Part shown: one piece after another, positions 6,679-32,352 of the stretch
Layout: each line of letters starts with the position of its first letter
How positions within the stretch are numbered: position 1 is the stretch's first letter
Assembly: GCA_002347855.1 (NCBI GenBank)
Contig: DDYE01000009.1
Location: 90,265-154,264, forward strand
Origin: Fidelibacterota bacterium UBA2242
GTDB lineage: Bacteria > Fidelibacterota > UBA2242
DNA: 64,000 nucleotides
Direction of reading: 5' to 3'
The notes under the pieces: generated by a model
Told to the model about the DNA's origin: nothing
Database searches by the model: none
The model's input: only the letters and a program-made list of their open reading frames with translations
Position numbers and translations under genes: made by a program

Positions 6679-7466
6679 ACATAACCAAACCTGACCGACG
6701 ATATAGCTTGATCGCCAGTGAAATGTGGTTTCGTTACCCGTCGAATCCAAAATTTCGCCTGGCGCTTGACAACCTGACGATTGAGTTTACGACCGTCTTA
6801 GGCATATATGGCTTAAGCGGTAGCGGTAAAAGTACACTTGGCAAAATCATTGGTTCGGTGTTGCAACCCACAGCCGGGACCTTCTGTTGCCAGGTGCAAA
6901 ATTGCAGTTCGACGACTTCATCACCGCCCAATTTTAAATATTTGCCACAGGAACCAGAGGAATTGTTCCTGGGCATGAAAATTGGTGAGGCCATTAATAA
7001 ATTACTTATGCCTAAAACAGATTGGTCTTTTCAACAATTCGTGGACTTCCTGAAATATCTCGGACTGCCTTTCGCTCAAGTTGAAAAACGATTTGGCTAT
7101 GAGCTCAGCACCGGGCAGTTACGCAAGGCAGCCCTGGCATTTGGTTTAGCCTTTCCCTGCGATGGGATTGTATTAGACGAACCGACTTTAGGACTAAGCC
7201 CGGCTGTCCGCCTTCAATTTGAAAAATTATTGACCGCGCGACTGACAGAGAAGGCGATTTTTATCATTTCACATGATTTTAACCTTTTAAGGAGCGTCGC
7301 TGAAAAGATAATTGTCATGGAACAGGGACAAGTCGTTTTTCAGGGTGGCGTAGAAGCCTTGCTATCAGATAAGCCGCTGGTCGAACGAGTTGGTATTAGT
7401 AAATTTGCTTTGCTAACTGCAAACAATTTGAAAATAGGGGATCAAATTTATGAGCCGTGCAAGTGA
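6669..7466 (+). CDS. ABC transporter ATP-binding subunit, partner NBD with degenerate signature
   Basis: Walker A is GLSGSGKST, Walker B is IVLDEPT and the H-loop is ISHD. The signature is degenerate (LSTGQ). It has a TTG start overlapping the upstream gene by 10 nt; ATG 6723 is an alternative. Confidence 0.8.
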   Translation: MALNITKPDRRYSLIASEMWFRYPSNPKFRLALDNLTIEFTTVLGIYGLSGSGKSTLGKIIGSVLQPTAGTFCCQVQNCSSTTSSPPNFKYLPQEPEELFLGMKIGEAINKLLMPKTDWSFQQFVDFLKYLGLPFAQVEKRFGYELSTGQLRKAALAFGLAFPCDGIVLDEPTLGLSPAVRLQFEKLLTARLTEKAIFIISHDFNLLRSVAEKIIVMEQGQVVFQGGVEALLSDKPLVERVGISKFALLTANNLKIGDQIYEPCK

Positions 7467-8067
7467 TGTCAAGAATTTAGTTACTGAAAAATATCGCGCT
7501 ATTCCTCCTCATCAGATAGTGACCACCTCGAATTTGATTTCCATCCTGCGTGCTTTTTTAACTTTACCGATTATTTACTATCTCGAGCGCGGGCGTGGTC
7601 ATGTCGCCTTCATTTTTATTGTAATCGCGATTGTGTCTGATATTCTGGATGGCTGGTTGGCACGTATCAGCCATGCTATAACGGAAATCGGAAAAGTACT
7701 TGATCCCTTTGCTGATGGGGTGGTGATTTTAAGTGTAACGCTTTATTTACTGATGGACAATAGGGTGCCGGGCTACTATTTCGGGCTTTTAGCCATCCGT
7801 TATTTTTTAATTGCTATACTCGGAATATTTTTGCTGAATAACTACGGCATCTCACCGCAGTCGAATAAATTGGGGAAGATCTCGATTGTCTTCACCGCGG
7901 CGACAGTGCTATCATTTGTTTATCAGGATAAAATTGGGAATATCGTCATTCCTTTAATGTGGGTTTCGATTCTTTTCTTAATCATTTCTGGTATATGGTA
8001 TATCTACACCTTCCTGAACCAAATTTTGCATGCTTATCGTCGCAGGAAAGCAGAGCGTAATGCCTGA
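7450..8067 (+). CDS. CDP-alcohol phosphatidyltransferase family protein
   Basis: Contains the D-G-x2-A-R-x8-G-x3-D-x3-D motif (DILDGWLARISHAITEIGKVLDPFADG) and is polytopic. Confidence 0.8.
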   Translation: MSRASDVKNLVTEKYRAIPPHQIVTTSNLISILRAFLTLPIIYYLERGRGHVAFIFIVIAIVSDILDGWLARISHAITEIGKVLDPFADGVVILSVTLYLLMDNRVPGYYFGLLAIRYFLIAILGIFLLNNYGISPQSNKLGKISIVFTAATVLSFVYQDKIGNIVIPLMWVSILFLIISGIWYIYTFLNQILHAYRRRKAERNA

Positions 8068-8941
8068 TTGGGGATTAAAAAAAACAGCCCGTTTCTTGGC
8101 TGCTAAACTGCCGCTGCTTGGGCGCTTTATCCGCCTGGATGAGACAACTTTACAGCAAGTTGAAGAAAGCTTATTGTCCTGTGACCTCGGGGTTGAACTG
8201 ACTGAACAGCTGCTGGAACGTTTGCGGCGGATTGACCGTCAGGATGCCGACCAGTTAAAAGAAATATTAAAAGCCGAATTAGCTGCCCTCATTTCTCCGA
8301 CTCAGATGAACCAAATTGTCGAGGGTAAACCATTGGTCATTCTATTCGTGGGAGTAAATGGCACAGGTAAAACGACCACCATCGGCAAATTAGCTTATTA
8401 TTTCAGCCAGAAGAATGAGAAAGTGCTCATCGCAGCCACCGATACTTTTCGCGCGGCGGCTTACGAGCAACTCCAGATTTGGGCGAAGCAAGCCGGAGCC
8501 GCCTTTCTGGGTAATCCTCAGGGCAAAGACCCGGCTGCCATTGCTTTCGACGCCGTCCAGTCCGCCTTAAAGCATAATTACGATGTCCTATTGATAGATA
8601 CGGCGGGACGTCTGCATACCAAAGCTAACTTGATGGCTGAACTGGCGAAAATTAAACGTGTCATTCAAAAAGTATTGCCTGCAGCTCCTCACGAAGTCTG
8701 GCTTGTCCTGGACGGTAATACCGGGCAGAACAGCATGGTACAGGCACAGGAATTCTTAAAGGCAGTCGGCGTAACAGGTTTAATCGTTTCAAAACTCGAT
8801 GGAACTGCCAAGGGCGGTATTGTACTCGCTATTCATCAGAAGTTGCATGTCCCGATAAAATTCATTGGTGTCGGTGAAAAAATCACCGATTTAGTTGAAT
8901 TCGAACCGCGCGGTTTTATCGAAGCGCTCCTCTCTTCCTGA
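8060..8941 (+). CDS. ftsY: Signal recognition particle receptor FtsY (short form)
   Basis: The SRP54-type GTPase has G1 (GVNGTGKTTT) and DTAGR motifs. The start is taken at ATG 8060; the longest ORF begins at 8030. Confidence 0.9.
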   Translation: MPDWGLKKTARFLAAKLPLLGRFIRLDETTLQQVEESLLSCDLGVELTEQLLERLRRIDRQDADQLKEILKAELAALISPTQMNQIVEGKPLVILFVGVNGTGKTTTIGKLAYYFSQKNEKVLIAATDTFRAAAYEQLQIWAKQAGAAFLGNPQGKDPAAIAFDAVQSALKHNYDVLLIDTAGRLHTKANLMAELAKIKRVIQKVLPAAPHEVWLVLDGNTGQNSMVQAQEFLKAVGVTGLIVSKLDGTAKGGIVLAIHQKLHVPIKFIGVGEKITDLVEFEPRGFIEALLSS

Positions 8942-8960
8942 AAAATTGTGCCTTAAACAG

Positions 8961-10265
8961 ATGAAAGTTGCTAATAGAACATTCAGTTTAATCTCCTTAG
9001 GTTGTCCTAAAAATACAGTTGACTCGGAAGTGCTCAAGGGTGAATTATTGAAGGCTGGCTGGATTTATCTTGAAAAACCCAATGAAGCCGCCCATGTCAT
9101 CATCAATACCTGTGGCTTTATTCAACCGGCAAAAGAGGAATCCATTGAGACAATTTTGGATACGATCCAATTGAAAAAAAGCGGCAAAGTCGAAAAAGTC
9201 ATCGTATGGGGTTGCTTGACTCAGCGTTATTTTGACCAATTGCGCACGGAGTTACCGGAAGTAGATTGTCTTTTCGGGGTGGATGCCCAATCCGCTATTC
9301 TCGAATATCTAACCGGACAGATGCCTTCGTGCCAGGATTTTACACACAGTCGCAATCTGCTCACGCCATCGCATTACGCTTATCTTAAAATTGCGGAAGG
9401 GTGTGACAATGCCTGTTCTTTCTGCGCCATTCCCAATATTCGCGGACCGCAAAAAAGCCGCTCTATTGATAGTCTTCTATTGGAAGCAGAATACGTGAAG
9501 TCTCAGGGGGTTAAAGAACTCATCGTCATTGCTCAGGATATAACCCGCTACGGCTCTGATTTGAAGCCCGCCTCTGGCGGGTTGTTCGATTTGTTGTCAG
9601 AGTTACTCCGTGCCCGTCTTTTTCCATGGGTACGTCTGATGTATGCCAATCCCGCTTTCTGGCAGTCGGAATTGAATAGTTTATTTAATGACTACCCGGA
9701 ATTATGTCCCTACCTTGATATTCCCATTCAACATGCCAGTAATCGTTTATTGCGTCGGATGAAGCGTGGTATAACCCGCCAAAAAATGTCACAGGTTTTG
9801 CAGCGTCTCCGGCGGGAGGTGCCGAATCTGGCGCTGCGCACTGCCGTCATGGTTGGTTATCCCTCAGAAGAAGAGCGCGATTTTGAAGCTCTGTTGGATT
9901 TCATCGAAGAGATACGCTTTGAAAGACTGGGGGTGTTCTCTTATTCAAGTGAGGAAGGTACGCCCGCAGGTTTAGAGCCCGATAATGTGCCCCCTGAAAT
10001 CAAAGAAGAGCGGCGGGAACTTTTAATGCAGGTGCAATACGATATTTCGCATGAATTTGCCCGCCAGAAAATCGGCAAAAATATTACTGTTTTAATAGAA
10101 AAGCGCGACGGCGACTACTATTTAGGAAGGACGGTATGGGATGCGCCTGAAGTAGATTGCTTTGTCAGAGTCACCAGCCAGAAATCGCTGCCGATAGGTG
10201 AGTTCCAGACAGTTCAAATTAGTGGTGTGGATGGTTTAGATTTAATCGGTTTCTGTGCGCATTAA
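8961..10265 (+). CDS. rimO: Ribosomal protein S12 methylthiotransferase RimO
   Basis: It has an MTTase N-domain (SLGCPKNTVDSE), a radical-SAM motif (CxxxCxxC, CDNACSFC) and a C-terminal TRAM domain. The start is taken at the internal Met, because the longest ORF overlaps ftsY. Confidence 0.85.
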   Translation: MKVANRTFSLISLGCPKNTVDSEVLKGELLKAGWIYLEKPNEAAHVIINTCGFIQPAKEESIETILDTIQLKKSGKVEKVIVWGCLTQRYFDQLRTELPEVDCLFGVDAQSAILEYLTGQMPSCQDFTHSRNLLTPSHYAYLKIAEGCDNACSFCAIPNIRGPQKSRSIDSLLLEAEYVKSQGVKELIVIAQDITRYGSDLKPASGGLFDLLSELLRARLFPWVRLMYANPAFWQSELNSLFNDYPELCPYLDIPIQHASNRLLRRMKRGITRQKMSQVLQRLRREVPNLALRTAVMVGYPSEEERDFEALLDFIEEIRFERLGVFSYSSEEGTPAGLEPDNVPPEIKEERRELLMQVQYDISHEFARQKIGKNITVLIEKRDGDYYLGRTVWDAPEVDCFVRVTSQKSLPIGEFQTVQISGVDGLDLIGFCAH

Positions 10266-16253: not shown

Positions 16254-16832
16254 TTAACGATATAGCTTATGTTCTGTAATATATTGTGCTATTGCCTGTG
16301 GCACATAGCCTTCCAGTGATTGTCCTTGGCGAACCCTATTCCGAACCAAACTGGACGAAATGGGAGACATTTGATTTTTTAAAACTATAACCTGCTGCAG
16401 GAATTTAGGCTCTACTTTATCTAAATCGCATTCCGGTCGCTTTGCAATCACGACCTGCACAGAATTTAGAATGGCTTCTGGTTCGCGCCAGTTGGCGAAG
16501 TCCAGCAGACTGTCTGCGCCAATCAGGAGATAGTACTCGGCTTGGGGCTCTTGCGCTTTTAGAAAACGGATAGTGTCAATAGTATAGGAGATGCCTTCAC
16601 GCTCAATTTCGACCGTGTTGATACGAAAATGGGGATGTCCCGCGAGAGCAAGGCGCAGCATATTCAAGCGGTCTGCGGCAGTAGCATAAGTACGGTGACC
16701 TTTTTGAGGGGCGATATAGGCGGGAATGAAAAGCACTTCGTCTAATTGCAGCTCTTTCAGAAAAGATGTCGCGATGGTCAGATGTCCGTTATGCGGCGGA
16801 TCGAAGCTGCCACCGAATAAGCCGATTTTCAT
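16254..16832 (-). CDS. nadD: Nicotinate-nucleotide adenylyltransferase
   Basis: The N-terminus is GLFGGSFDPPHNGHL. Its start overlaps the bamD stop as ATGA. Confidence 0.9.
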   Translation of the reverse strand: MKIGLFGGSFDPPHNGHLTIATSFLKELQLDEVLFIPAYIAPQKGHRTYATAADRLNMLRLALAGHPHFRINTVEIEREGISYTIDTIRFLKAQEPQAEYYLLIGADSLLDFANWREPEAILNSVQVVIAKRPECDLDKVEPKFLQQVIVLKNQMSPISSSLVRNRVRQGQSLEGYVPQAIAQYITEHKLYR

Positions 16833-17632
16833 GGATTATTTTTCTTCAACTCTTTTTCGAGTTGCTTTTTTTCGCGATTGTAGGAAAGTTGCAAATACAC
16901 CATTTGTTCGGCAGGGATACGCTCTTTGTACTTGCTGTTGAGAATCTGGCGCACCTGTTCGTATTCATCGAAGCGCCGCAAGCGGATAAGGCAATAGGCT
17001 TTTTCCAGATAGGCTGGCAGGACCCAATCGGTGTCGTAATAGAGTTCAAGAACTTTATCGAAGTAAATGATGGCTGACTCCCACTCGCGCAGTTTGCGGT
17101 AGAGTCGTCCGCTTTCGAAAAGTTTTCGTCCTAAACGATTGCGGATTTCGATAATCATTTTTTCAGCAGCAGGACGATATTTGCTATTGGAATAAGTTTC
17201 AACAAAATCCTGAAAACTCTGCAAAGCCTTCAAGGTATATTCCTGGTCAAGTTGATATTGAGGCGCATTTTTAAATTGCGAGAGCGCGATTTTGTAACTG
17301 GCATCTTCGACTAGCGAGCTATACGGATAGCGCTCCGTCAATTTCTGATACTCGGCAATGGCTAAAAGATACTCTTTGCGATTGAAATAACATTCACCAA
17401 TATAAAATTGGGCATCATCGGCTAAATCACTGCCTGGATTATTGAGCACGACCAGAGTGAAATATTCAATGGCTTTGTCCCATTTTTTCTTATTGAAAGC
17501 CTCGGTTCCCTTTTGATAGGTTTTATTGAAATCAGTCACAATTTTCGGCTGATTGCTCGAACAGCTCGTCATTATCAATATCAGATAAATTAGACTCGTC
17601 AGGCTAATTTTTTCCAGAAGACTATTTTTCAT
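16829..17632 (-). CDS. bamD: Outer membrane protein assembly factor BamD-like TPR lipoprotein
   Basis: It has a lipoprotein signal (LILIMTSCSS) and YfiO/BamD-like TPRs (DDAQFYIGECYFNRKEY..AIAEYQKL). Confidence 0.8.
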   Translation of the reverse strand: MKNSLLEKISLTSLIYLILIMTSCSSNQPKIVTDFNKTYQKGTEAFNKKKWDKAIEYFTLVVLNNPGSDLADDAQFYIGECYFNRKEYLLAIAEYQKLTERYPYSSLVEDASYKIALSQFKNAPQYQLDQEYTLKALQSFQDFVETYSNSKYRPAAEKMIIEIRNRLGRKLFESGRLYRKLREWESAIIYFDKVLELYYDTDWVLPAYLEKAYCLIRLRRFDEYEQVRQILNSKYKERIPAEQMVYLQLSYNREKKQLEKELKKNNP

Positions 17633-17673: not shown

Positions 17674-18585
17674 CTAAAACGAGAGGGAGACATTAATTCC
17701 CCGAATTGGATAGCGATAACGGTAATCGGCGACTAAGTCTAATGACCAGCTGACAGACTTGCTTTCCGGTGGACGATAATGTTTGGCAGCAATCTGAGCA
17801 TGAAAGGCGCTAATAAGATGGTTAAACATGATTACCGTAGCGAAATTGGTCGCCATTTTCAATGCCTGATTCGATTTGTAGCGGTCATTGAGATATTTAT
17901 TGCGTTCAGGGCTATTCTTGACCGGTTCAATCTGGGTAGTATCTACATAATCAGTGGAAAAATCATCCCAGCCAGTCGCAAATTGGTCATACTTGCCGAT
18001 ATTTTCATAAAAATCGCGCGTACGTATCGGGCGCAAGGTCTGCTGTTCAAAGGGTAAATCCTTTTCGTTGGCGAGAATGCTTGCCCAGGTAGGTATGTAA
18101 AGGTTAAGGGTATCCTCATGAGCAGGATATTCCATCCCATTATATTCAATCCAGATGGAATGGGAACCAAAGCCTTTGCGCGTCAAGCCAAATAAATCTG
18201 GATAAGTCAAGCTATTAGCGTACCAGTTCCACAAACTCCAATGATTATTGGCAAAGTGCTTATAACTTTTTTCGATTTTATTACCGGTACTTTTTTGATT
18301 GAAGTAAACAGCCCATGAGATAGCCTCGACGCTGGCAAAAGCAATGGCGCGATAGCGGGCGCCAGCATAAAATTCACCTGCACCTGGAATCGCTGCCGAT
18401 AGCAAAAAGGCTACGCCCGGTGATTTGGCATAATTGAATTCGAAAGTATCAGATTGCACTTGGGCATAACGCAAATTATAGAGTAAGCGTTCCCGTGTAG
18501 TGGCATCGTCCTTGTCCCAGCCACCGAGTTGTTGCGAAAATGCTAAGTAAGGGATGAAAATCGCGAATAATAAACGTGATTTCAT
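17674..18585 (-). CDS. Secreted protein, DUF5683-like (SAxIPGAGEFY motif)
   Basis: A signal peptide starts at MKSRLLFAIF. A strong SD (AAGGAGG) lies 5 nt upstream of ATG 18585 and overlaps the stop of the upstream gene. The protein ends in F. The DUF assignment is from memory. Confidence 0.4.
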   Translation of the reverse strand: MKSRLLFAIFIPYLAFSQQLGGWDKDDATTRERLLYNLRYAQVQSDTFEFNYAKSPGVAFLLSAAIPGAGEFYAGARYRAIAFASVEAISWAVYFNQKSTGNKIEKSYKHFANNHWSLWNWYANSLTYPDLFGLTRKGFGSHSIWIEYNGMEYPAHEDTLNLYIPTWASILANEKDLPFEQQTLRPIRTRDFYENIGKYDQFATGWDDFSTDYVDTTQIEPVKNSPERNKYLNDRYKSNQALKMATNFATVIMFNHLISAFHAQIAAKHYRPPESKSVSWSLDLVADYRYRYPIRGINVSLSF

Positions 18586-18595
18586 AGCGCCTCCT

Positions 18596-21500
18596 TTATA
18601 GTCCAAATAAAATAGTTAAATAAGTCTGCCATTCTTTGCCGTAGCGATGAGCTTTTCCCTGGCGGTCTGTCAGATCGAACTGATCGAGACCATAGACAAA
18701 ATCCCAGCTGATAGCGGTTGGGTAAGCATAGAAGGAAAAGCCACTCAGGCGGAGCTGCACGCCGGCATCGCGTTTAAAATCACCTACTATCCGGCGGGTT
18801 ATTTTTAATGGATTTGTACTGATATCGCTCAACTGCACTTTTGGATACCCTCTAACTCCATTCCAGGCGTTTCCGGCTTCAATATAAAAACCAAGGAAGG
18901 CATTTTGCAAATTAAAAGATAACAAGGGAAAAGATTTTTCTCGAAAAAGCGGCACCCGCCAGGTATATTGTCCTATCAAGAGGTTGCGCCCTTCGATGCT
19001 ATAATAGGGATAGCCTTTTAATCCATCCAGCCCACCGGCAAAGAAGTAGAAAAAGGAATCAACATCCGGTTTGGAAATAAAGCCCCATCGCCAATGCAAA
19101 TTGCCCGTCAAATTCTTTATCAAAGGATATTTGTGGTACCAATCGCCAGTTTGTTCAATACGCCAGTAGTAGTTTTTACGAAAGTCCACATTGAGTGTGC
19201 TGTAGGCTTGGTTGGTACTAAAGCCGCGAATGAATTGGTCATAATTGCGGGCAACGAGCGTATTGACGACAATGCCGTTGTCGGGATTGGTTTCGGCATT
19301 GATACTTGGCAGAGTGGTATTGTGCTGCCATAGCATCTTAAAATTCAGTCCCCGATAGTAGTCGTAAGAAAAGCCATTCTGGTAAATAGCCTGAGAGGGA
19401 ATGCGTTCGTTGGTTGAGGTCCTATATTTAGCGAAAGAAACATCAAAACGAAGGCGATTGACGCCCGACACTGGCAGCGCCATTCCCAAATCAGCTTCGC
19501 TCAGATAATAGGTGTAATCCAGTTCAGCAGGGTAACTATTAATCGTTTCTTTTATATTCTTGATATGCCGACTAAGGTTATAAAGTTCGATGTAGAAAGT
19601 CGGATACCACTGGCGATATTCGAGAATAGTGAACAAGTCGCGGTCAAAGTATTGATTGACGGCGGCACCGCCGAAAATATTAAAGCGGTTGAGAATTTCT
19701 GAAGAATAAAAGTAGAACCCCGGTTTGGCTTTTTTATAATCCCACATTAGGCGCGGCAGGAAAAAAAGACGGGCAAACTGCTCCTTATAAGGTTCAGCCT
19801 GTGTCACAGTGACTTCGGGCGCAGGTAGGAGCCCGGGATTAGTCGCAGGTTGGCGATTGTAAGTGGCATTCTGTAAGTCGAGAGATTGTGGGTTTTTTAT
19901 CAAGCTGATTTTGAAAGCAGTGTCGTCAAAAAGCACATAGGCTAATTCGCCCGCGCTATTGACAGCCGGCATAAAAGCCCCGCCGAGGACATTGGTCACT
20001 AATTCTTTTTCGCCAGAAATCAGGTTCAGGCGATAGAGATTAAAAATGCCAGTCTCATCGGAAGAATAGTAGAGCCACTTGCCGTCGGGACTGAAGAAGG
20101 GATGGCGCGTATCGCAATCACTCTCATTCCGATAGATGATTGAGTCGCAACTCAGGTCATAAAGCGCTAAATTGCGTCCGTGACTGACTAAGTAATCGAA
20201 GGCAATTAAGCGTCCATCAGGTGACCAGCTGGCAGTAAAGACTTGGGTACCGTCGGTAAAATGAGTGAGATTGCGCTTGCTTTTATTTTCTAAGTTATAC
20301 ATCACCAGATTGGAAGTGCCATCGCGTCCCGTGATGTAAACTAATTCCTTTCCATTGGGTGCCAGGGCAGGGTTATATGCTCTGGCTTCTTTTGTCAAAC
20401 GTTCTTCTTTTCGGCGCCGCAAATCGTAGCGATAGAGGTCATAAAAAATTGAACCACGGCGATTAGGACGACTGGGACGGGAGTAGTAAATATAACGACC
20501 ATCGGGAGAAAGCGAAAGGCTGGAATTGACCCGCGCCACGAGGCGTTTAGTTTTGCCGCTGCGCCGGTCAAAACGAAAAAGCGCCGTCTGTGAAAAGTAG
20601 TCACGCCCTTCGTTGGATACATAATAAAGGCAGCTATCACCACTCCAGGTAGGATAAAACTGAGTGCTGCCTTTTTGCAGTAACACTTCGCCAGCGAAAA
20701 CGTGAGGCTTTATAAAACGAGTGAGCTCGGCATAATGCTTATCAAGATACTGCCCCCACTCTTGATAAAGCAGGTCGCCCGGAGAAGCCGTGGCGCCTTT
20801 CATTGCCGAGCTCACTGAATATTGGTTTGGTTTTGCAAGCTCTGCCGCCAGTTTTGAAAGAACATCAGTACCAAATCTGTTACTAATATAATATACAAAA
20901 GAAAAACCTAAATTGTAAACACTTTCGTTACCAATTCCTCTTTTTCCGAATGATCCCATCTCGGAAAAGGTCAATAATTTTTTATGCAAAACCCGATCAC
21001 GCAACAACATATCGCGGTGCGAGTCCCAGTAATCGTTGGGATTGCCAGGATACATATACTGCGCCATGCCTTCTGCCAACCACATCGGAATAACTAAACC
21101 CGGAACCGGGTAGGAACAAATAATTCTCGGATAACCGTAAATTACATCCTGTCGCTTTTCTTTTTCGTAATCAATCATTTGCAGGTAAAAGCCGGGGATT
21201 GCGCGCCCAAACTTCATGGCTTTCTGCAAGGAAACGATATGGGTAAACTCGTGGGTGATGACATCTCTTAGCCAGCTGTGACTGCCGCGCATCGGGAAAT
21301 CAAGAGGCGTTGCCCAGATTTCGATTTTGTTGTCATAGTAGTAAGCCGCTCCGTTAGAGATGTCGTCCGTATCTTTAATAATGAGCGCGGTTTTTTCGCG
21401 CGGCGCAAAATTATAAAAATTGGTAACCGGTCCATAAATAGCTTCGGCAATGCGGGCGCTTTCATAAGCCGTCCATTCCGTGCCTTCATGATAATGCACT

Positions 21501-21634
21501 TTGAAATGCGCAGTTTCAAAGGTCAACCATTTCAGCTCGGGATGATTGAATTCACTAAATTGGGCAAAAGCCCCCTGAAAGATACCTAACAGCAACCAGC
21601 AGAATAAAAAAAATTTATGCGGCGTAATAAACAT
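18596..21634 (-). CDS. Secreted zinc-metallopeptidase-like (HEFTH) protein fused to TolB/PD40-like beta-propeller repeats
   Basis: The HExxH motif is at nt 21239–21253, with a downstream Glu-rich MA-clan-like region. There are multiple SPDG(R/K)..Y PD40-like repeats. The start is taken at the Met that gives a signal peptide (MFITPHKFFLFCWLLLGIFQGAFA), whose ATG overlaps the upstream stop as TAATG. The 6-frame ORF runs to 21739. Confidence 0.6.
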   Translation of the reverse strand: MFITPHKFFLFCWLLLGIFQGAFAQFSEFNHPELKWLTFETAHFKVHYHEGTEWTAYESARIAEAIYGPVTNFYNFAPREKTALIIKDTDDISNGAAYYYDNKIEIWATPLDFPMRGSHSWLRDVITHEFTHIVSLQKAMKFGRAIPGFYLQMIDYEKEKRQDVIYGYPRIICSYPVPGLVIPMWLAEGMAQYMYPGNPNDYWDSHRDMLLRDRVLHKKLLTFSEMGSFGKRGIGNESVYNLGFSFVYYISNRFGTDVLSKLAAELAKPNQYSVSSAMKGATASPGDLLYQEWGQYLDKHYAELTRFIKPHVFAGEVLLQKGSTQFYPTWSGDSCLYYVSNEGRDYFSQTALFRFDRRSGKTKRLVARVNSSLSLSPDGRYIYYSRPSRPNRRGSIFYDLYRYDLRRRKEERLTKEARAYNPALAPNGKELVYITGRDGTSNLVMYNLENKSKRNLTHFTDGTQVFTASWSPDGRLIAFDYLVSHGRNLALYDLSCDSIIYRNESDCDTRHPFFSPDGKWLYYSSDETGIFNLYRLNLISGEKELVTNVLGGAFMPAVNSAGELAYVLFDDTAFKISLIKNPQSLDLQNATYNRQPATNPGLLPAPEVTVTQAEPYKEQFARLFFLPRLMWDYKKAKPGFYFYSSEILNRFNIFGGAAVNQYFDRDLFTILEYRQWYPTFYIELYNLSRHIKNIKETINSYPAELDYTYYLSEADLGMALPVSGVNRLRFDVSFAKYRTSTNERIPSQAIYQNGFSYDYYRGLNFKMLWQHNTTLPSINAETNPDNGIVVNTLVARNYDQFIRGFSTNQAYSTLNVDFRKNYYWRIEQTGDWYHKYPLIKNLTGNLHWRWGFISKPDVDSFFYFFAGGLDGLKGYPYYSIEGRNLLIGQYTWRVPLFREKSFPLLSFNLQNAFLGFYIEAGNAWNGVRGYPKVQLSDISTNPLKITRRIVGDFKRDAGVQLRLSGFSFYAYPTAISWDFVYGLDQFDLTDRQGKAHRYGKEWQTYLTILFGL

Positions 21635-24600
21635 TATTTGATGACGATAATTTTGATGATTTTTATGTCGGTCTGCGCTCCAACACTGGCTTTGACCACA
21701 GCGAAATAGACCCCGCTCTTTATCTCTCCGACATACCATTCTTTTTCGTTGAAATCACCACTGCGGGGATGATTGTCTTCGAAAGAAGTGATTAAGTCGC
21801 CGGCTAAGTCGTAAATATCGATGTTGATTTTGCACGAAGAATTAACAAAGTAACGAATAAAAGTACGATTATCGCGAGCCGGATTGGGCCAGTTAAAAGT
21901 CAATTCATGATTGAGCAAGCCCTTGGCATTTTTACCCGAGGTGATTGGTAAAACAGGATAAAAGTAGCGCCGGCTGGCATTGCCTCCCTGACAAACCCAG
22001 TCCGTGCTTGTCAGTGCCGCCGCCGCTAAGAGCGCGCCACCAATCTGGCGATAATCAGACTGCCCGATTGGCTGAGTGGCGCCCAGCAAAAGCTGTCCAC
22101 CGGCTGAATTGATTAAAATTCCCGAACCAGCACGCGGCTGGACAAAATTCAGGGGGAAATTAGCAATTAGTCTGCCCTGCTTGTTGAAAGCAACAACGCC
22201 CCTTTGGGTTGTCAGCAAAACGTCCTTGATGCCATCACCGTCAAGGTCGCTTAAACAAAGGTTGCTACTGAATTCGTCGCCTTTTAAAATGTTGGGCAAG
22301 CTAATCGGGAAATTGTATTTGAACTTTAAATCCTGGTTAAAAGCGTAAACCGCATTGGCGTCGTAGGCGATAATTTCGTTTTTACCATCACCGTCAATAT
22401 CCGCACAGGCTAAGTCACCGCTTAGAACGATATTCCGGGTGATGGTTTTTTGACTTTCATCAATGTCAAAAATTATTTCTAAATGTCCATTATAGTAATG
22501 AATTATATCAGGAAGCTCATTGCCGTCAATAAATGCCAGTAAATGTTCACCCTGACCGAGATTTGCCGATTGCCCCAGGGAAGTAATGCCGAAGGGCTGC
22601 GGCTGAATTCTAAGCAGCTCATTGGCGTCGGTGATGCCGTATAAAAAGGTAGAATCACCTAAAAAACGTGCGATAGGAGCAGACAAATACACCGATTGGA
22701 CGGAGGAGGATTGCGGCAAGTAATAGCCCAATTCGTATTGCTTGACATCCGTTGCCAGAACACAATATATGATGCCCTTGCCAATGGGAAGTGGTTGACC
22801 ATACAGGTTTTTTTTCTGCCAATTGGTCTGTGCTAAAACCTGCCATTTGCCGTTGGAATCAATCTGCCAGGTGGTAATAGTGAGGTCATCGCCCGGTTGC
22901 GGTTGGAAGCCGGTGATTTGAGAGCCATTAATGGCATAAGTCGTGTTGGCGACGGCGGTGGAAAGCAAATACCCTTCGTCATTGAATATATAAGCGCTAT
23001 CAGCGCAAACTAAAAAAGCGTCGGGAATCCTATTCATATTTAGGGAAAGTGGTAAAAGATGCGTGATAGTAGTCGGGAAATTGAGAGGAAAATTTTCCGG
23101 TGTAGTTGCTCGCCTGATCTGAAAATACATGACCATACCTGCCGGACCAATACTGTCAATGCTGACCCCGGTGTAAAGATAGGCGTTGGTAGTTGTAGCG
23201 GGATTAGTGAAAGGAGTGAAGCCCACATGTTGCGCGGCGTCGCGCGGATAATCAGGATTCAAGTGGAAAAAGCCTTCATTACCGGCAAACCACGGGTCGA
23301 AATACCAACCAATGTTGATATTTGCTCCTAAGATACCGGTGTCGTAACCTAAATCCTGTGCGCCATCACCTTCTTCGAGATCAACACCGCGGTAGTTGCG
23401 GTTGATATTGACTTGGTTCTTGGCGAGATTGCTTTGGATAATTGATTCGTCAATGTGCCAGATGAGGAGACCGGAACCGGGCAATCCGTAATCATATTTG
23501 GGAACACTAAGCATAACCCCTGTTTGGGGAGAAAAGACTGCTCGCAGGGAGTCACGCAGAAGCGGAAAAAGGGATGGCCAGGTTTGACTGGGGCTTTGTA
23601 GATAAAGCCGATATTGAATGCTATCTAAACTAACACCAGGTCGCACATGCGCACAGCGATTTTCGATTAAAAAGTATTCAGAAGCATTTAAAGTCACTTT
23701 CCAAATAGTAGTATCGGAACCGGATTCGATTTCAGGCAGGTGAATTGTAGCGCTATTCGGTGACTCGATTGGTTCTTCCCATCCCATGAAAAAGCGTTCC
23801 CAGGCAGATGGTACCGCGGGCACCAAGCCATTGAGGTTGGCTGAGCCCTGGTCCATGAGCCCAAATTTCCCAATACCGGTTGTGCCAGTCTGGGTATCGT
23901 AAAGAGCTGGTAATCCCAAATAAAACCCGAAAATAAAGGCGAAGGTACCATTTAACCCAATCTGGTATTCGCAAGGTGTTGCTGCTGAACCAAAAACTTC
24001 CTGCCAATTGTCAAAAAGCAGATGATTTTGCGTTTCCGGCAAAATTAGACCACGGTCGAGATGATAATTACCTTTTTCGACCGCAATACCGAAAAAATCA
24101 GGATCATCCGGAGCCAGCAGGTTTTTCAAGTCAGTGCGGTTAATGAAAACCGAGGGAATATCATAAGGCGTTGGATCGAGAAAAAGGTCGAAGTCCTGCC
24201 CGACCCCCGCGTGAAAAACGACCACTACATCATATTGACGGAAATCTACTTCAGAATCAGCAGCTTGGATAGCATCATAAAATAGCTCCGCTAAGCGTAA
24301 ATCAATCGAGTCTTTCTGTAAAAAAGGATGATAATAAGCCATCCGGTGCGGCACGGTATAGGTCGAATCGTCTTGTATGGGAAAAACCTGCGAATTAACT
24401 GTGTCAATGGTTACTTTGCCATGGGAAACTTTGGAATAGTAATTGTTTAACGCGCGCAAATGGTCAATGAAATAGGCGCGATTATGGGGCGGTGGATCAA
24501 TTACAAAATCAGAACAGGGTGTATTCGTGTCATTTAGAAATTGACCATTGCCAGTTGTTCCAGGGTCTGCATCGCTCGGAAAGCTGACTCGTAATGCGCA

Positions 24601-24738
24601 GATTTTCAAATTTGTAGTAGTAGTGACACTCGCACGGCTCTTTTTATGATAAAAGTTGGGTTTTATAGATTCGGCGCCCTGCGTAAGAGTCGCCAGAAAA
24701 GTCAGAACACTAATGAAGATTAAGGAGGATTTTGGCAT
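21634..24738 (-). CDS. T9SS C-terminal sorting domain cargo protein with FG-GAP/VCBS-like repeats and N-terminal peptidase-like domain
   Basis: The C-terminal ~88 aa (NWPNPARDNRTFIRYF..IDIYDLAGDLITSF..SGVYFAVVKA..KIIKIIVIK) match the Por secretion tail pattern. FG-GAP-like motifs are present (DIDGDGKNEII, DLDGDGIKDVLL). The start is taken at ATG 24738, which gives the signal peptide MPKSSLIFISVLTFLATLTQGA; the ORF extends to TTG 24777. Confidence 0.7.
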   Translation of the reverse strand: MPKSSLIFISVLTFLATLTQGAESIKPNFYHKKSRASVTTTTNLKICALRVSFPSDADPGTTGNGQFLNDTNTPCSDFVIDPPPHNRAYFIDHLRALNNYYSKVSHGKVTIDTVNSQVFPIQDDSTYTVPHRMAYYHPFLQKDSIDLRLAELFYDAIQAADSEVDFRQYDVVVVFHAGVGQDFDLFLDPTPYDIPSVFINRTDLKNLLAPDDPDFFGIAVEKGNYHLDRGLILPETQNHLLFDNWQEVFGSAATPCEYQIGLNGTFAFIFGFYLGLPALYDTQTGTTGIGKFGLMDQGSANLNGLVPAVPSAWERFFMGWEEPIESPNSATIHLPEIESGSDTTIWKVTLNASEYFLIENRCAHVRPGVSLDSIQYRLYLQSPSQTWPSLFPLLRDSLRAVFSPQTGVMLSVPKYDYGLPGSGLLIWHIDESIIQSNLAKNQVNINRNYRGVDLEEGDGAQDLGYDTGILGANINIGWYFDPWFAGNEGFFHLNPDYPRDAAQHVGFTPFTNPATTTNAYLYTGVSIDSIGPAGMVMYFQIRRATTPENFPLNFPTTITHLLPLSLNMNRIPDAFLVCADSAYIFNDEGYLLSTAVANTTYAINGSQITGFQPQPGDDLTITTWQIDSNGKWQVLAQTNWQKKNLYGQPLPIGKGIIYCVLATDVKQYELGYYLPQSSSVQSVYLSAPIARFLGDSTFLYGITDANELLRIQPQPFGITSLGQSANLGQGEHLLAFIDGNELPDIIHYYNGHLEIIFDIDESQKTITRNIVLSGDLACADIDGDGKNEIIAYDANAVYAFNQDLKFKYNFPISLPNILKGDEFSSNLCLSDLDGDGIKDVLLTTQRGVVAFNKQGRLIANFPLNFVQPRAGSGILINSAGGQLLLGATQPIGQSDYRQIGGALLAAAALTSTDWVCQGGNASRRYFYPVLPITSGKNAKGLLNHELTFNWPNPARDNRTFIRYFVNSSCKINIDIYDLAGDLITSFEDNHPRSGDFNEKEWYVGEIKSGVYFAVVKASVGAQTDIKIIKIIVIK

Positions 24739-24790: not shown

Positions 24791-26014
24791 TCAGAATTTT
24801 ATATTAAGGGAAAACAACATAGTATTCTGCCGCGGGTGACCGGCTTCGCCTGCAGTGTAGCCGAAATCGAAGCCCAAGCCTGCCCAGCGTAAACCGGCTC
24901 CAAAAGTCGGCACCGGAAGATTATTTTTCATGACAATCTTCCCGATTTTGTCATAGATACATCCCACCCGAATGGCAAACAGGTCGGAATACCAGTATTC
25001 GATGCCAAAATTGTGTACTAATTTCTCGAATTCTCTTTTCAGAGAGCCGTCGTTGGTATTGCCGTCCTCATCGTTAGCACCTATGCCATCCGAAGCGGAA
25101 TCGTAGGTCAATAGCCAATCATCAATCCACGAAGTGAAGATGCCTTTGTACCAGTCATCAGAATAAGCCGTTTCGCGTTGTCCTTTTTTATTGTAATCGC
25201 CGCCGGCTATGCGATGACCATCGGCATCATAGCCGCCCACTTTGCCATCGCCGTCAATATCACGGTCAGGGTAAGAAGCCACGAGGAGTTTATTGACGTC
25301 GTAGGCAATGGTCACGCGGTTATATTCGCCGCCTAAGGTATAGCTGAGACCAAACTTAAGATTAGTTGGCATGGGGTCAGCCTGCGAAACATCGATAAAG
25401 GCGATTTTCGGTCCGATATTAGCAATCGTGGCGCCCATAGTCAAATTTCTTAACAGGAATTGCTTCTTTAGATAGCCGACATCAAAGCAAAAGTTGGTCG
25501 AAGTTCCCTTCCCTTTTTCATGACCGGCGCCGCGGTCGGTAAGATGTTGGTGAACCATTTTGACATTGACGCCTAAGGATGAATTGCGGGTCAGAGCTGT
25601 CCCATAGGATGCTGTTACCGCCATCATATAAGAGCTAAAATCTCCTAAATAATTGCCGCGCTCATCCATACGAGCTTGTTCTCCCAGGTTCATCAAAATG
25701 ATATTGCCACCCAAAGTCCCGACGTCTTTTAAAAATTGCCGATAGCTCACGAATTCGTAGTACATATCGGAAGCCAGATTTGGTAACCAGTTGGTATGCG
25801 TCAAACCGGCTTCGCGTCCCCGCAGGAAACCCAAGCCAGCTGGATTATAGTAGGTAGCGTAGGCGTCGTCGGTAAAACCGGCACCGGCTTCGCCCATACC
25901 GCAGTACCGTGCCCCGGGATTGATTAAAAGCCAGACCGCACCAGCCTCACTCTGGGAGTAAGCCATCAAAGTCATACTCAATATTAAAAGCGATATGCTC
26001 AAAAATCTATGCAT
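24791..26014 (-). CDS. PorV/PorQ/PorP-superfamily (FadL-like) outer-membrane beta-barrel
   Basis: It has a signal peptide, GARYCGMGEAGAG and YYNPAGLG motifs like T9SS shuttle proteins, and a C-terminal Phe (NIKF). A strong SD (AGGAGG) precedes the ATG. Confidence 0.55.
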   Translation of the reverse strand: MHRFLSISLLILSMTLMAYSQSEAGAVWLLINPGARYCGMGEAGAGFTDDAYATYYNPAGLGFLRGREAGLTHTNWLPNLASDMYYEFVSYRQFLKDVGTLGGNIILMNLGEQARMDERGNYLGDFSSYMMAVTASYGTALTRNSSLGVNVKMVHQHLTDRGAGHEKGKGTSTNFCFDVGYLKKQFLLRNLTMGATIANIGPKIAFIDVSQADPMPTNLKFGLSYTLGGEYNRVTIAYDVNKLLVASYPDRDIDGDGKVGGYDADGHRIAGGDYNKKGQRETAYSDDWYKGIFTSWIDDWLLTYDSASDGIGANDEDGNTNDGSLKREFEKLVHNFGIEYWYSDLFAIRVGCIYDKIGKIVMKNNLPVPTFGAGLRWAGLGFDFGYTAGEAGHPRQNTMLFSLNIKF

Positions 26015-26155
26015 CTATTCCTCCTGACAAACGAATAATATATTGCTCTCTAAATATACGCAAACGTTGATATATGTAGTACTATTGAAAAAAGATAGGT
26101 TGTAACAATTAGAAGATTGTCGGTCCCCCTGTGCTTATATGGTAAAAACAGGCGC

Positions 26156-26320
26156 TCAAAATTTCTGTGCCTCCTCGACAAGCATGATGGGAATATCGTC
26201 TTCGATTGCATATATTAATCGGCAATTCGAGCAGATTAATTTCTGATTTTCGGCGTCGTAGGTCAGTTCGCCTTTACATTGTGGACAGACTAAGATTTCG
26301 AGTAGGTCTTGACTTAACAT
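26156..26320 (-). CDS. Trm112/UPF0434 family small zinc-ribbon protein (54 aa)
   Basis: It is not in the ORF track because it is under 60 aa. I translated it as MLSQDLLEILVCPQCKGELTYDAENQKLICSNCRLIYAIEDDIPIMLVEEAQKF, which is a classic Trm112 sequence (LLEILVCP.CKG.L, C.NC...Y.I.DGIP.ML). Confidence 0.75.
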   Translation of the reverse strand: MLSQDLLEILVCPQCKGELTYDAENQKLICSNCRLIYAIEDDIPIMLVEEAQKF

Positions 26321-29905: not shown

Positions 29906-31114
29906 TTAGCGTCGTTTATATTTCAAAAACCATAGTTCACCTGTCGTTAACCCGCACGACAAGGTAAAGAATTTTTCATTACTTAAAAAGCCCTTGCGCA
30001 ACCCATAAGTTAAGGCAAAATCAATGCGATTCAAATCATTAAAAATTGGCAACCCGATTCCCGCCGTCAAACCCCTTTCGCTTATCTGAGTACCCGCCCA
30101 ATAGACTGGTTCTGTACGATAATAAAGACCGAAGCGATAGGCAAAGCGGCTGATTTCAGGATGTTTTTCGTCAATAACGGGAGTTAATTCAATGCCGACT
30201 CCAATATACTGAGCATTTTGCCATTTAACAGGAGTGAAGAGGTAGAAATCTTGGAAAACTGAGTGATCGGTGTAGGTATAATGCCACTCGAGATTCAACC
30301 GCAAGAAATTAGAGAACTTATTGGTCAGAGCCAGGCGCAGAGTGCCGGGATAGGCGAGTGGCCGGGATGGAGCGGTGGTATCGGGACCATAAGAATAGTC
30401 AATGCTTTTTTGGTAAGAAAATTTTAGATTTTTATCAAAAGTGAATGCCATAGTAAGATGGGTTCGCGGTACATTCCACAGGCTGCCGACTTCTAATGAA
30501 GTGCCCTTTACAACCGAGTTCATCTGCCAGTAGCTATAGACCTTGTTGGTGCCACTTAAGGTCGTATTGTAATTGACGACATAATTGCCCAAAAGGAAGC
30601 GCGCTTTTGCTCCCAAGTTTAGATAAGGTGATAAGCGAAAGCCTCCGCCCAGAAAAAATTCCGAAATGCCACCTGTTAGGAGCAAATCAGATTGACTGCT
30701 GATTTTAATGCCATCAAAAAGCAAGGTATCTATAAAAGTGCGATTAGCGTCCATCCGCGTAACGGGATTTAATCCCAAGCCAATGCCGATCTTTTTACCA
30801 ATCGGGAACTTGAAGGCAAAACCAACGAAACGCCCGAAGTTAGTAGTGTAATCGAGGTTGGGAACGGCAATGTTAGAGAAGTACATTTGCCCCTGCAGCG
30901 AGGTGCTCACAAAATTAGTCCAGAGAGCAGGATTGACGCTATTGAGACTGATGGAATCAGGAAGAGCAGCACCGGTCAAACCCAGACCAAGCGAACGCAC
31001 TGGCTGAACCGGAGACGCAATACCGAAGCCGTACATCGAATAATGCGAAAACTGACCTAATGCCGGTAAAGCAATTAAGCCAATGGCGGTGACTATGGCA
31101 AATATTCGTTTCAT
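29906..31114 (-). CDS. Outer-membrane beta-barrel, second PorV/FadL-like paralog
   Basis: It has a signal peptide (ALPALGQ) and an N-terminal VRSLGLGLTGAAL...NPALW motif like the 24791–26014 protein, with an alternating β-strand pattern. Confidence 0.45.
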   Translation of the reverse strand: MKRIFAIVTAIGLIALPALGQFSHYSMYGFGIASPVQPVRSLGLGLTGAALPDSISLNSVNPALWTNFVSTSLQGQMYFSNIAVPNLDYTTNFGRFVGFAFKFPIGKKIGIGLGLNPVTRMDANRTFIDTLLFDGIKISSQSDLLLTGGISEFFLGGGFRLSPYLNLGAKARFLLGNYVVNYNTTLSGTNKVYSYWQMNSVVKGTSLEVGSLWNVPRTHLTMAFTFDKNLKFSYQKSIDYSYGPDTTAPSRPLAYPGTLRLALTNKFSNFLRLNLEWHYTYTDHSVFQDFYLFTPVKWQNAQYIGVGIELTPVIDEKHPEISRFAYRFGLYYRTEPVYWAGTQISERGLTAGIGLPIFNDLNRIDFALTYGLRKGFLSNEKFFTLSCGLTTGELWFLKYKRR

Positions 31115-32352
31115 CGTTCTTTCATTAAAAATAGTTTGAGATAAGGCTGCCTGGCGGAATCTGCTGTAGTATAAAGGCTATAGAGAATGGGATTGTAAGA
31201 TGATGGCGCTAACCAGATTACAAAACCGAAATTTTTAGAATAACCACTGGTAATATTCTGAATTGTCCTCGGCAAATTCATTTTTAATATTTGACTACCT
31301 GCTGTAAGAGTGTGGCTCGCCTCATAGGTGCTTGGGGTAGTAAAATCAGAGGCGTTCCAGGCGGTCGAATCCAACATGTTCAGGTAAACCGTAATACTTT
31401 TATTGTAAGACATAGATAAAGAAGAGTCAATATAGAGATACAAATTAGCATCGCCGACGACCCAGTTTTTATCAATATTTAACTCATCGAGATTAACTTT
31501 CAGGAAAGCGTAGCCTGTTAAACCTGCCGAAAGTACCAGTCGCTGATTGTTAATTTTGGCTGAGTTGTATTTCAAGATTGCGACATCGTTGGTTGCCGCG
31601 ATAGTCCGCGTGAGAGTGTCGCCCTGGTAAATGTACTGAACAATGAGAGTGGGAGCGTAAACGGTACTGCGGGTATAGATACAACCGATGGCGGTTTCGG
31701 TCTGATTAGCAGTCTGGAGAATCAACCCGTAATTAGTTTTGCTCGTATCCAGCCAGTCATTAATCATTGCTTTGGCAAAATTAGTGATGTCGAGCTGGAC
31801 GGTATCTGATATTTGGAAATCGAATTCTGTAAAAGGTGTTACCCGGTATGAGGTTAAATCGAAATTCTTATCGGAAACACTATCTTCTTCCCAATTGGGT
31901 GCTGCATTAGATTGGAGCAGTCCAATTTTTATAGTTGGATTTAGCACCTGGTTGGTGTCGGTTGCTAAACTGGTGGCAGTATAAAGATTCAAGGTACAAC
32001 TCAGGAGGGTGTCGAGAGTGTCAGGCAGTAGACTAAGATTGGAAAAGCGCAATAAAGAATAAGCGGTCACCCACTCGTTTTGTCCAACATAAAGATAGAA
32101 GTAGCTGCCTAATTTGCCGGGGACAATTAAATTGCGGGTCTGAATCAGACTTGCCGGTACGACTAGAGTATCAAAATATGCCAGAGGCTGGTCGTACGGA
32201 AGTGTCGGTAATTTTTCCTCACAACCGCTGCTAATTATCAGCATTAGTCCCACCACGATAAATATTAAAAGGTGGTGTGGTGGGTTAGAAGTTGCCTGCG
32301 CGAGTTGGTTAAAGCGAGCTTTACATGCGTTCCATGAGTGCGATAATTTCAT
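31111..32352 (-). CDS. Lipoprotein of unknown function (DUF4270-like)
   Basis: The lipobox is ISSGC. Its size and its position next to a short glycogen-synthase-like gene match the conserved Bacteroidota pair (from memory). It overlaps the downstream gene by 4 nt. Confidence 0.4.
   Translation of the reverse strand: MKLSHSWNACKARFNQLAQATSNPPHHLLIFIVVGLMLIISSGCEEKLPTLPYDQPLAYFDTLVVPASLIQTRNLIVPGKLGSYFYLYVGQNEWVTAYSLLRFSNLSLLPDTLDTLLSCTLNLYTATSLATDTNQVLNPTIKIGLLQSNAAPNWEEDSVSDKNFDLTSYRVTPFTEFDFQISDTVQLDITNFAKAMINDWLDTSKTNYGLILQTANQTETAIGCIYTRSTVYAPTLIVQYIYQGDTLTRTIAATNDVAILKYNSAKINNQRLVLSAGLTGYAFLKVNLDELNIDKNWVVGDANLYLYIDSSLSMSYNKSITVYLNMLDSTAWNASDFTTPSTYEASHTLTAGSQILKMNLPRTIQNITSGYSKNFGFVIWLAPSSYNPILYSLYTTADSARQPYLKLFLMKER

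Follow-up and report, generated by a model that had tools for sequence, protein, structure and literature searches.

The stretch of DNA analysed here (the window: 64,000 nucleotides, nt, of contig DDYE01000009.1 from Fidelibacterota bacterium UBA2242) carries on its minus strand a gene, labelled X in what follows (18596..21634), whose 1,012-amino-acid (aa) translation and AlphaFold2 model describe an outer-membrane protein composed of a peptidase domain, a β-propeller and an Omp85-type β-barrel. X belongs to a run of minus-strand genes that encode, in order, a PorV-family barrel, a protein we call M6i, X itself, a DUF5683-family protein, and then BamD, NadD and LepA; M6i is the upstream partner of X and bears a type IX secretion system (T9SS) C-terminal sorting domain (CTD). 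An initial annotation of the window had presented X as a secreted metallopeptidase-propeller fusion, expressed at a set ratio to a T9SS cargo and perhaps acting as its maturase, anchor or sheddase.

The reading frame of X can be extended to 21739. We prefer the ATG at 21634 as the start, because a typical signal peptide (MFITPHKFFLFCWLLLGIFQGAFA, followed by Q) begins there, because the same 1,012-aa protein appears unchanged in public gene calls (P0001), and because the relatives of X are 970-1,020 aa long. The signal peptide, read from the sequence (aa 1-24; 21563..21634, minus strand) and seen as a low-confidence helix in the model, has its predicted cleavage site between AFA and Q, and Gln is the consensus residue at +1, present in the majority of relatives. 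The M6i gene ends in ATC AAA TAA, the final A of the stop codon doubling as the A of the X start codon, and the TAATG overlap so formed (21632..21636, minus strand) is present just as first described. The fixed stoichiometry read into it is another matter: overlaps of 1 or 4 nt occur at 12 of 45 close same-strand junctions within the window, so that TAATG is ordinary here and indicates a shared operon with possible coupling, not a set ratio of products. What is out of the ordinary, unlike TAATG itself, is the retention of a tight M6i/X junction across related genomes—in most of 80, the two genes overlap by 1 or 4 nt or lie less than 40 nt apart. A scan for promoters and terminators from 13.4 to 26.5 kb returned the same counts as in shuffled sequence and was uninformative.

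The AlphaFold2 model of X, built with 49 relatives (predicted local distance difference test, pLDDT, 89.4; predicted template-modelling score, pTM, 0.87), places in succession a signal peptide, a mixed α/β domain, a propeller, a coil linker and a barrel. The first of the folded domains (aa ~28-305; 20720..21553, minus strand), also modelled alone (pLDDT 80.5), has the gluzincin metallopeptidase fold, bearing out the MA-clan-like domain initially proposed. All 49 family members match Pfam Peptidase_MA_2 (E<0.01), the score for X itself being 21.7 bits, under the Pfam cut-off of 32.4; and Foldseek, given the domain model, returns M1 aminopeptidases (IRAP, ERAP, F3), M9 collagenases and M61 peptidases with a template-modelling (TM) score of ~0.5 and a best E of 4.6e-4, sequence identity to the M1 structures being 12-15%. 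The HEFTH zinc-binding and catalytic motif lies exactly where it had been placed (aa 128-132; 21239..21253, minus strand), and H128, E129 and H132 are unchanged in all 49 aligned relatives. W185, A187, E188 and G189 of the motif WLAEG (aa 185-189; 21068..21082, minus strand) are likewise invariant, E188 in 49 of 49 relatives, and both HExxH and E188 persist in distant relatives from Zixibacteria, Gemmatimonadota, Latescibacteria-like bacteria and Krumholzibacteria. The third zinc ligand is probably E188, a role which we assign by presumed analogy with WLNEG of family M1 peptidases. The peptidase thus has a complete HExxH...E site and, judged from these residues, is apparently active.

The domain departs from family M1 in two ways. 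The GxMEN exopeptidase motif is missing from X, the equivalent strand reading SNGAAYY with no Glu; and H132 is separated from E188 by 55 residues, an inserted β-hairpin included, as against the 18 of M1 (HExxH-x18-E). We therefore reject X as a member of M1 and regard its N-terminal domain as gluzincin in fold yet outside any characterised family. No other domain of X is as well conserved: identity to distant members is 57% here and 38% in propeller and barrel. A profile made from it finds 405 clusters (at 50% identity) with E<=1e-30 among 1.84 billion representatives, and in the best 150 of these it is nearly always N-terminal in a protein of ~1,000-1,200 aa.

The domain that follows is a six-bladed propeller of TolB/PD40 type (aa ~315-580; 19895..20692, minus strand), with 24 β-strands in the model and matches to Pfam PD40 and DPPIV_N. 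The PD40 score is 65.7 bits (cut-off 20.9), and both stretches quoted as propeller repeats in the initial annotation are there, SPDGRYIYYSRP at aa 376-387 and FSPDGKWLYYSSDETGIFNLYRL at aa 514-536. Against PDB, Foldseek places the propeller with TolB (E 7e-13), and TolB is also the sole match of the X profile to PDB sequences. X is nevertheless not a full TolB of the Tol-Pal system: the equivalog model TIGR02800 gives 82.9 bits where its cut-off is 343, over propeller positions 171-354 only, leaving the N-terminal TolA-binding domain uncovered. Tricorn and the S9 peptidases (DPP-IV, acylaminoacyl peptidase) resemble X in having a PD40/TolB propeller beside a peptidase, and the Foldseek matches to them run through the X propeller; they differ in being serine peptidases, of α/β-hydrolase or S41 type, whereas the peptidase of X is a gluzincin joined to a membrane barrel. 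Tricorn itself can be set aside, since X has one propeller, no match to PDZ or the Tricorn C-domain, and a TM score of 0.2 to 1k32; the precomputed Tricorn_N/2nd matches fall on propeller repeats only. The S9 peptidases, acyl-peptide hydrolase and DPP-IV among them, are rejected on similar grounds, their matches being confined to the propeller, which in X is followed by a β-barrel instead of an α/β-hydrolase. Beyond the propeller comes a linker (aa 581-623; 19766..19894, minus strand) modelled mostly as coil (pLDDT 64-81), which after the signal peptide is the least conserved segment of X. Neither Pfam nor NCBIfam finds a polypeptide-transport-associated (POTRA) domain in X, and the linker as modelled has no POTRA fold.

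The long β-rich C-terminal region noticed at the outset is real, and is a 16-strand Omp85-type barrel (aa 624-1012; 18599..19765, minus strand) by the model, Foldseek and hhalign. Foldseek aligns it with the barrels of E. coli BamA (6fsu, 6qgy, 7bnq; E 1e-9 to 5e-9, probability 1.0, TM 0.53-0.58 on the target), and hhalign aligns X with the BamA/TamA-like protein encoded in the same window (E 5.9e-4), the loop-6 (L6) and β13 motifs in register. The L6 motif GGLDGLKGYPYYSIEG (aa 867-882; 18989..19036, minus strand), counterpart of the BamA (V/L)RG(F/Y), is the barrel segment with the highest conservation: its consensus is GG(L/M)xG(L/I)(K/R/Q)GYP, G867, G871, G874, Y875 and G882 are invariant, and it pairs with LGGSNSLRGW of the window's Omp85. 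On the strand after L6, EAGNAW (aa 919-924; 18863..18880, minus strand) corresponds to the BamA FxDxG motif and pairs with IDGGN of the window's Omp85; the family form is G(D/N)AW, with G921, A923 and W924 conserved. X ends in ...TILFGL (family consensus ...LFGF). It thus shares with BamA and TamA the 16-strand barrel, the L6 and β13 motifs and the C-terminal aromatic signature, and differs from them in carrying an enzyme and a propeller where they carry POTRA domains. The Pfam model PF01103 matches six of 49 X relatives at E<0.01 (best 3.5e-9) and gives no match with the window copy; the Gemmatimonadota orthologue has a precomputed Omp85 match. Six strands of the barrel are unusually long (20-23 residues) and are its least conserved part (26%), as expected for an exposed surface. 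On the strength of the model, X belongs to the Omp85 superfamily, lacks POTRA domains, and is predicted to be an integral outer-membrane protein, not a soluble one; the description of X as secreted had missed the barrel.

An architecture of this kind has been catalogued. Heinz & Lithgow, in 2014, defined by clustering alone a WD40-like Omp85 subfamily, gave PD40 plus Omp85 Pfam architectures for it in their supplementary tables, included Caldithrix abyssi H1XQ58 among its members, found BamA or TamA, TolB and M1/M9 peptidases to be the best structural hits, and likened the class to a BamA-BamB fusion (PMC4104836). A 2024 paper notes that such Omp85s carry "divergent WD40 and peptidase domains" (PMC11358297). 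X, with its aminopeptidase-like domain, TolB-like propeller and Omp85 barrel, is a member of this class, placed there by matching architecture; its propeller (TolB) and N-terminal (M1/M9) fold matches are the PDB families of Heinz & Lithgow's Table S3, and a full-length orthologue at 39% identity is present in a Caldithrix sp. locus (L048). The earlier statement that the architecture was not recognisable as a named T9SS component therefore holds in one respect, since X is matched by none of the T9SS models in Pfam and NCBIfam, and fails in another, since the class already has a place in a catalogue. Among NCBIfam T9SS models none exceeds its cut-off; PorE alone registers (18.3 bits, cut-off 600), by way of the propeller repeats. 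X also goes unmatched by the NCBIfam models for BamA and TamA, and NCBI names for X relatives are "BamA/TamA family outer membrane protein" or "PD40 domain-containing protein". Two further candidates were tried and rejected: type Vd PlpD, for want of patatin or POTRA matches, and BepA of family M48, with no M48 or tetratricopeptide-repeat (TPR) match in Pfam or NCBIfam. Tricorn and acyl-peptide hydrolase were named in the initial annotation as examples of families whose match would speak against its proposal, and X matches no well-characterised family as a whole; TolB, Tricorn, S9 and M1 are met at the level of domain fold only. The catalogue assigns the class neither a function nor a T9SS linkage, and in the literature searched we found no mention of such a linkage, no relevant follow-up work on TolB-like Omp85 proteins, and nothing relevant on T9SS in Marinimicrobia/Fidelibacterota, on DUF5683, or on an Omp85 with PorV or the attachment complex. 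The presence of X in a porU/porV/M6i/DUF5683 cluster across phyla, to which we now turn, seems to have gone unreported so far.

The first gene of the cluster in the window (24791..26014, minus strand) encodes the PorV-family outer-membrane barrel. It scores 239.7 bits with PorV_fam (cut-off 90) and 178 with the PorV equivalog (cut-off 250), and gives a full-length match (E 1.3e-21) to Flavobacterium johnsoniae PorV (6h3i_F). The possibility that this gene is a BamG was rejected in view of that full-length match and of a separate BamG-family gene in the window. The next gene (21634..24738, minus strand) encodes M6i, an M6-like inactivated metalloprotease of 1,034 aa with an FG-GAP propeller and a type-A T9SS CTD: the NCBIfam model NF052323 ("T9SS-dependent M6-like inactivated metalloprotease") scores 545 bits (cut-off 600), Por_Secre_tail and FG-GAP also match, and the CTD (21658..21891, minus strand) is recognised by PF18962 (27.4 bits) and TIGR04183 (32.4 bits, cut-off 23). 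At the position of the M6 HExxH stands the degenerate stretch FAFIFGF (23923..23943, minus strand), in which both His and the Glu are replaced, and in 60 of 60 M6i orthologues no intact HExxH is present. Searched against PDB sequences, M6i gave no match. The orthologue in KSB1 single-cell genome L079 (about 6946..9945) has HQFGH at the M6 active site, a Glu-to-Gln change, where in other orthologues one histidine or both are gone, and may be an intermediate of inactivation. Downstream of X are the DUF5683-family protein (17674..18585, minus strand; 303 aa, with a signal peptide), whose relatives carry PF18935 and whose hydropathy shows no clear transmembrane helix, and BamD (16829..17632, minus strand; TIGR03302, 151 bits, cut-off 81), a neighbour in Marinimicrobia only.

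In a scan of one genome per species, at least 512 species had a relative of X; context was read from the best 80 loci, which belong to Marinimicrobia/Fidelibacterota, KSB1 and Calditrichota, and each neighbour was counted only over loci with enough flanking sequence. M6i lies upstream of X at 73 of 74 loci, PorV further upstream at all 55, and DUF5683 downstream at all 72. BamD follows at 49 of 67, all of them Marinimicrobia, with none in the KSB1 and Calditrichota loci. The order porV, M6i, X, DUF5683 holds in all three groups, with two tandem DUF5683 genes in KSB1 and Calditrichota. In these last two the cassette is flanked by housekeeping genes (gatB, efp, accBC, gcvH/P), so that only the cassette itself is conserved. 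The gap of ~3.9 kb upstream of porV in many Marinimicrobia loci holds a TRAP transporter, not porU.

Outside these groups the order at a Zixibacteria locus is PorU, PorV-family, PorV-family, M6i, DUF5683, X, DUF5683-like, one DUF5683 copy preceding X, and the PorU sortase is recognised by NF033707 at 751 bits (cut-off 420). A complete Gemmatimonadota chromosome has PorU (738 bits), PorV, M6i, X and DUF5683, the last again duplicated, with no BamD linkage and followed by an unrelated dcw cluster; two further genomes have the M6i-X pair alone, without porV. A true PorU in the same cluster led us to reject, for Zixibacteria and Gemmatimonadota, the idea that X stands in for a missing PorU sortase. 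The cassette containing X is thus kept across at least five phyla while the genes around it change, from glyA/nrdR in Marinimicrobia to gatB/efp/accBC/gcv in KSB1 and the dcw cluster in Gemmatimonadota. The partnership of X with the upstream CTD gene, offered as a prediction in the initial annotation, is therefore borne out by the 73 of 74 loci and by the more distant pairs. Each of the three grounds that the annotation gave for abandoning its proposal was examined, and what we found was no well-characterised family for X, orthologues linked to the CTD gene, and a conserved HEFTH.

The Zixibacteria loci held other peculiarities. In L083 (4125..6698) and L084 (4088..6667) two PorV-family genes are fused into one of ~858 aa with two PorV domains, between PorU and M6i. 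L081 (16001..19453), like L082-L084, encodes a protein of ~1,100-1,150 aa that is assigned to no family and has one weak SprA-like stretch (26 bits). Its gene comes immediately behind the T9SS-like cluster and runs up to, or into, the start of a POTRA-Omp85 gene. This 1,150-aa Zixibacteria neighbour was considered as a TamB and rejected, having no similarity to the TamB-like protein of the window.

The company X keeps invites comparison with the attachment complex of Porphyromonas gingivalis, whose members are PorQ, PorU, PorV and PorZ (PMC12365241). PorZ, a two-propeller protein, is exported with its CTD intact and is a component of the machine (PMC5121618, PMC8545088). The cluster resembles the PorU-PorV-PorQ-PorZ complex in its PorV-family barrels and, in Zixibacteria and Gemmatimonadota, its true PorU; it differs in that neither an Omp85 nor a DUF5683 protein is among the known parts of the Bacteroidota complex. 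M6i for its part recalls PorZ in being large, propeller-containing, CTD-bearing and devoid of catalytic residues, and differs in not being homologous to it outside the CTD; the M6i CTDs of Zixibacteria, Gemmatimonadota and loci L087/L088 weakly resemble that of PorZ. A dead, propeller-bearing protein encoded in a porV operon, elsewhere a porU-porV operon, is likelier to be a PorZ-like component of the machine than a payload, and the "cargo" of the initial annotation accordingly looks more like such a component, an M6 pseudo-protease. The cluster as a whole looks like the counterpart of the Bacteroidota attachment-complex genes, with M6i in the position of PorZ.

Building on the observed anatomy of X, its conserved motifs, its membership of the operon and its conservation across phyla, we favour the reading that it is an outer-membrane-anchored, periplasm-facing, propeller-gated peptidase, acting as an accessory subunit of the PorV/M6i T9SS module (probability about 0.45). 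The N-terminal domains of the Omp85 proteins BamA and TamA are periplasmic, and by this topology the peptidase and propeller of X most likely face the periplasm as well. X would then be an accessory outer-membrane subunit of the T9SS shuttle/attachment module in phyla of the Fibrobacterota-Chlorobiota-Bacteroidota (FCB) group other than Bacteroidota. Its barrel would anchor the protein beside PorV-M6i, with which we infer physical contact, the six long, poorly conserved strands probably projecting outward as a docking surface; its propeller, by analogy with Tricorn and the S9 enzymes, would restrict access to extended polypeptides; and its peptidase would work on the periplasmic side of the outer membrane, cutting polypeptides that are unfolded or extended. 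Candidate substrates are T9SS cargo, CTD remnants and mis-assembled components. A peptidase that most likely faces the periplasm sits awkwardly with the earlier suggestion of a dedicated surface sheddase or maturase of surface cargo.

That suggestion would be revived if X exported its own N-terminus in the manner of type Vd proteins, displaying a peptidase-propeller passenger at the surface to work with M6i as a protease, CTD-processing enzyme or sheddase. PlpD provides the precedent of an enzyme carried as passenger N-terminal to an Omp85 barrel (PMC4104836), and PorU sortase with PorZ that of an enzyme paired with a non-catalytic partner (PMC8545088); the X linker of ~40 residues could span the barrel lumen, and tight coupling to an exported partner would be sensible if both acted on the same side. 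PlpD, however, has its own POTRA and an exported lipase (patatin) passenger, and TpsB proteins too have POTRA, whereas X has none; export of a two-domain passenger of ~550 residues without POTRA would be unprecedented. In Zixibacteria and Gemmatimonadota, moreover, a bona fide PorU is encoded near X, so that X is not needed there as a CTD peptidase. TolB and the TolB/PD40 propellers of envelope machines are periplasmic, which also argues against a surface location, and we regard self-export as very unlikely.

Several observations weigh against the periplasmic accessory subunit that we favour. Two Zixibacteria operons (L083, L084) have porU, porV-porV, M6i and DUF5683 with no X at the locus, and in three Latescibacteria-like genomes (L086, L089, L090) X stands alone with an intact HExxH and no T9SS neighbours. 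The POTRA-Omp85 gene that follows the cluster in Zixibacteria and the BamD gene that comes next in Marinimicrobia fit a role in barrel assembly at least as well. Synteny shared among related phyla can partly reflect inheritance and not function. WD40-like Omp85 proteins are listed from Sorangium and Sideroxydans (PMC4104836). No functional study of the class was found in the literature searched. To our knowledge, no T9SS is known in the lineages of Sorangium and Sideroxydans.

Some of these points would be met if X were a general envelope peptidase, serving housekeeping or the use of nutrient peptides, its T9SS adjacency merely inherited in part of the FCB group. Beyond the stand-alone homologues with intact motifs in Latescibacteria-like genomes and the listing of WD40-like Omp85 from Proteobacteria and Myxobacteria (PMC4104836), a propeller joined to a peptidase is the design typical of oligopeptide-degrading enzymes such as S9 and Tricorn. 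Set against this are a cassette that stays intact in five phyla though all the flanking genes differ, and M6i-X genes that usually overlap, both hard to explain without selection for co-expression; we consider a general peptidase distinctly unlikely.

The neighbours concerned with barrel biogenesis raise another possibility, namely that X is a dedicated BamA/TamA-like insertase or assembly factor for T9SS barrels (PorV-family, or PorV-M6i), its propeller replacing BamB or POTRA as a platform for docking and its peptidase clearing stalled barrel precursors. In E. coli, BepA, a periplasmic M48 HExxH metalloprotease, works with the β-barrel assembly machinery (BAM), and X is like it in concept, as an HExxH protease that would serve an Omp85 machine from the periplasmic side; it differs in that BepA is an M48 domain plus TPR in a separate soluble protein, not fused to a barrel. 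The L6 and β13 signatures of a functional Omp85 are intact in X, L6 being the most conserved part of its barrel; BamD is immediately downstream at 49 of 67 loci and a POTRA-Omp85 gene follows the Zixibacteria cluster; the window has BamG-family, TamB-like and BamA/TamA-like genes no more than 30 kb away; and the comparison of the class by Heinz & Lithgow to a BamA-BamB fusion points the same way. The Bacteroidota BAM (BamA-BamD-BamG-BamH; Liu et al. 2025, PMC12611786), with its Omp85 barrel, FadL-type BamG and surface canopy, mirrors X, PorV and M6i. On the other hand X has no POTRA; the BamD linkage is restricted to Marinimicrobia and absent in KSB1, Calditrichota and Gemmatimonadota; the strongest constraint on X falls on its peptidase, not its barrel; and its most persistent partner, M6i, is a T9SS-exported surface protein, not a barrel. 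An assembly role for X is in our estimation doubtful, if conceivable enough to be kept in view.

The likeness to the Bacteroidota BAM can be carried further. Each system encodes together an Omp85, a 14-strand barrel of FadL fold and a large surface protein which that barrel holds or, here, would hold; BamG would correspond to PorV and BamH to M6i, with BamD adjoining in Marinimicrobia. The differences are that PorV is not BamG, for which the window has a separate family member, and that M6i is no lipoprotein but a substrate of T9SS. It is possible, if unlikely, that PorV, M6i, X and the DUF5683 protein form one physical machine, assembled like the Bacteroidota BAM (BamA-BamG-BamH) and forming an ancestral part of the way most FCB phyla handle T9SS cargo or attach it; M6i would then be a surface canopy held by its CTD, and Bacteroidota would have lost or replaced X. 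Were this so, a protease-bearing Omp85 would be an integral, ancestral part of T9SS in most FCB phyla.

What is known of T9SS comes almost wholly from work in Bacteroidota, and the other FCB phyla include Marinimicrobia, an abundant ocean group. The conserved cluster gives the WD40/peptidase Omp85 class, catalogued since 2014, a concrete and testable cellular context, and names X and DUF5683, together with the PorZ-like pseudo-protease M6i, as candidate extra components of T9SS. If the link is functional, a T9SS outer-membrane module would for the first time be seen to include, in X, an Omp85-family protein and a protease facing the periplasm; if it is not, X would still be a clear example of an Omp85 barrel serving as membrane anchor for an enzyme.

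Three other features of the window deserve mention. A small open reading frame for a Trm112-like zinc ribbon (CPxC...CxxC; about 26150..26320, minus strand) lies between nrdR and the non-coding stretch of ~140 nt that precedes porV. The BamG-family barrel (29906..31114, minus strand) scores 165 bits with NF053685, below the cut-off of 250, and is directly preceded, with a 4-nt overlap, by a DNRLRE-domain protein (31111..32352, minus strand); the two may be a BamG/BamH-like pair, which would fit Liu et al. 2025 in extending the Bacteroidota-type BAM accessory subunits across FCB phyla. Lastly, a TamB-like protein of 1,307 aa (44188..48111, plus strand) overlaps by 4 nt a POTRA-Omp85 of 614 aa (48108..49952, plus strand), which at 291 bits against the BamA cut-off of 297 is either TamA-like or a short BamA.

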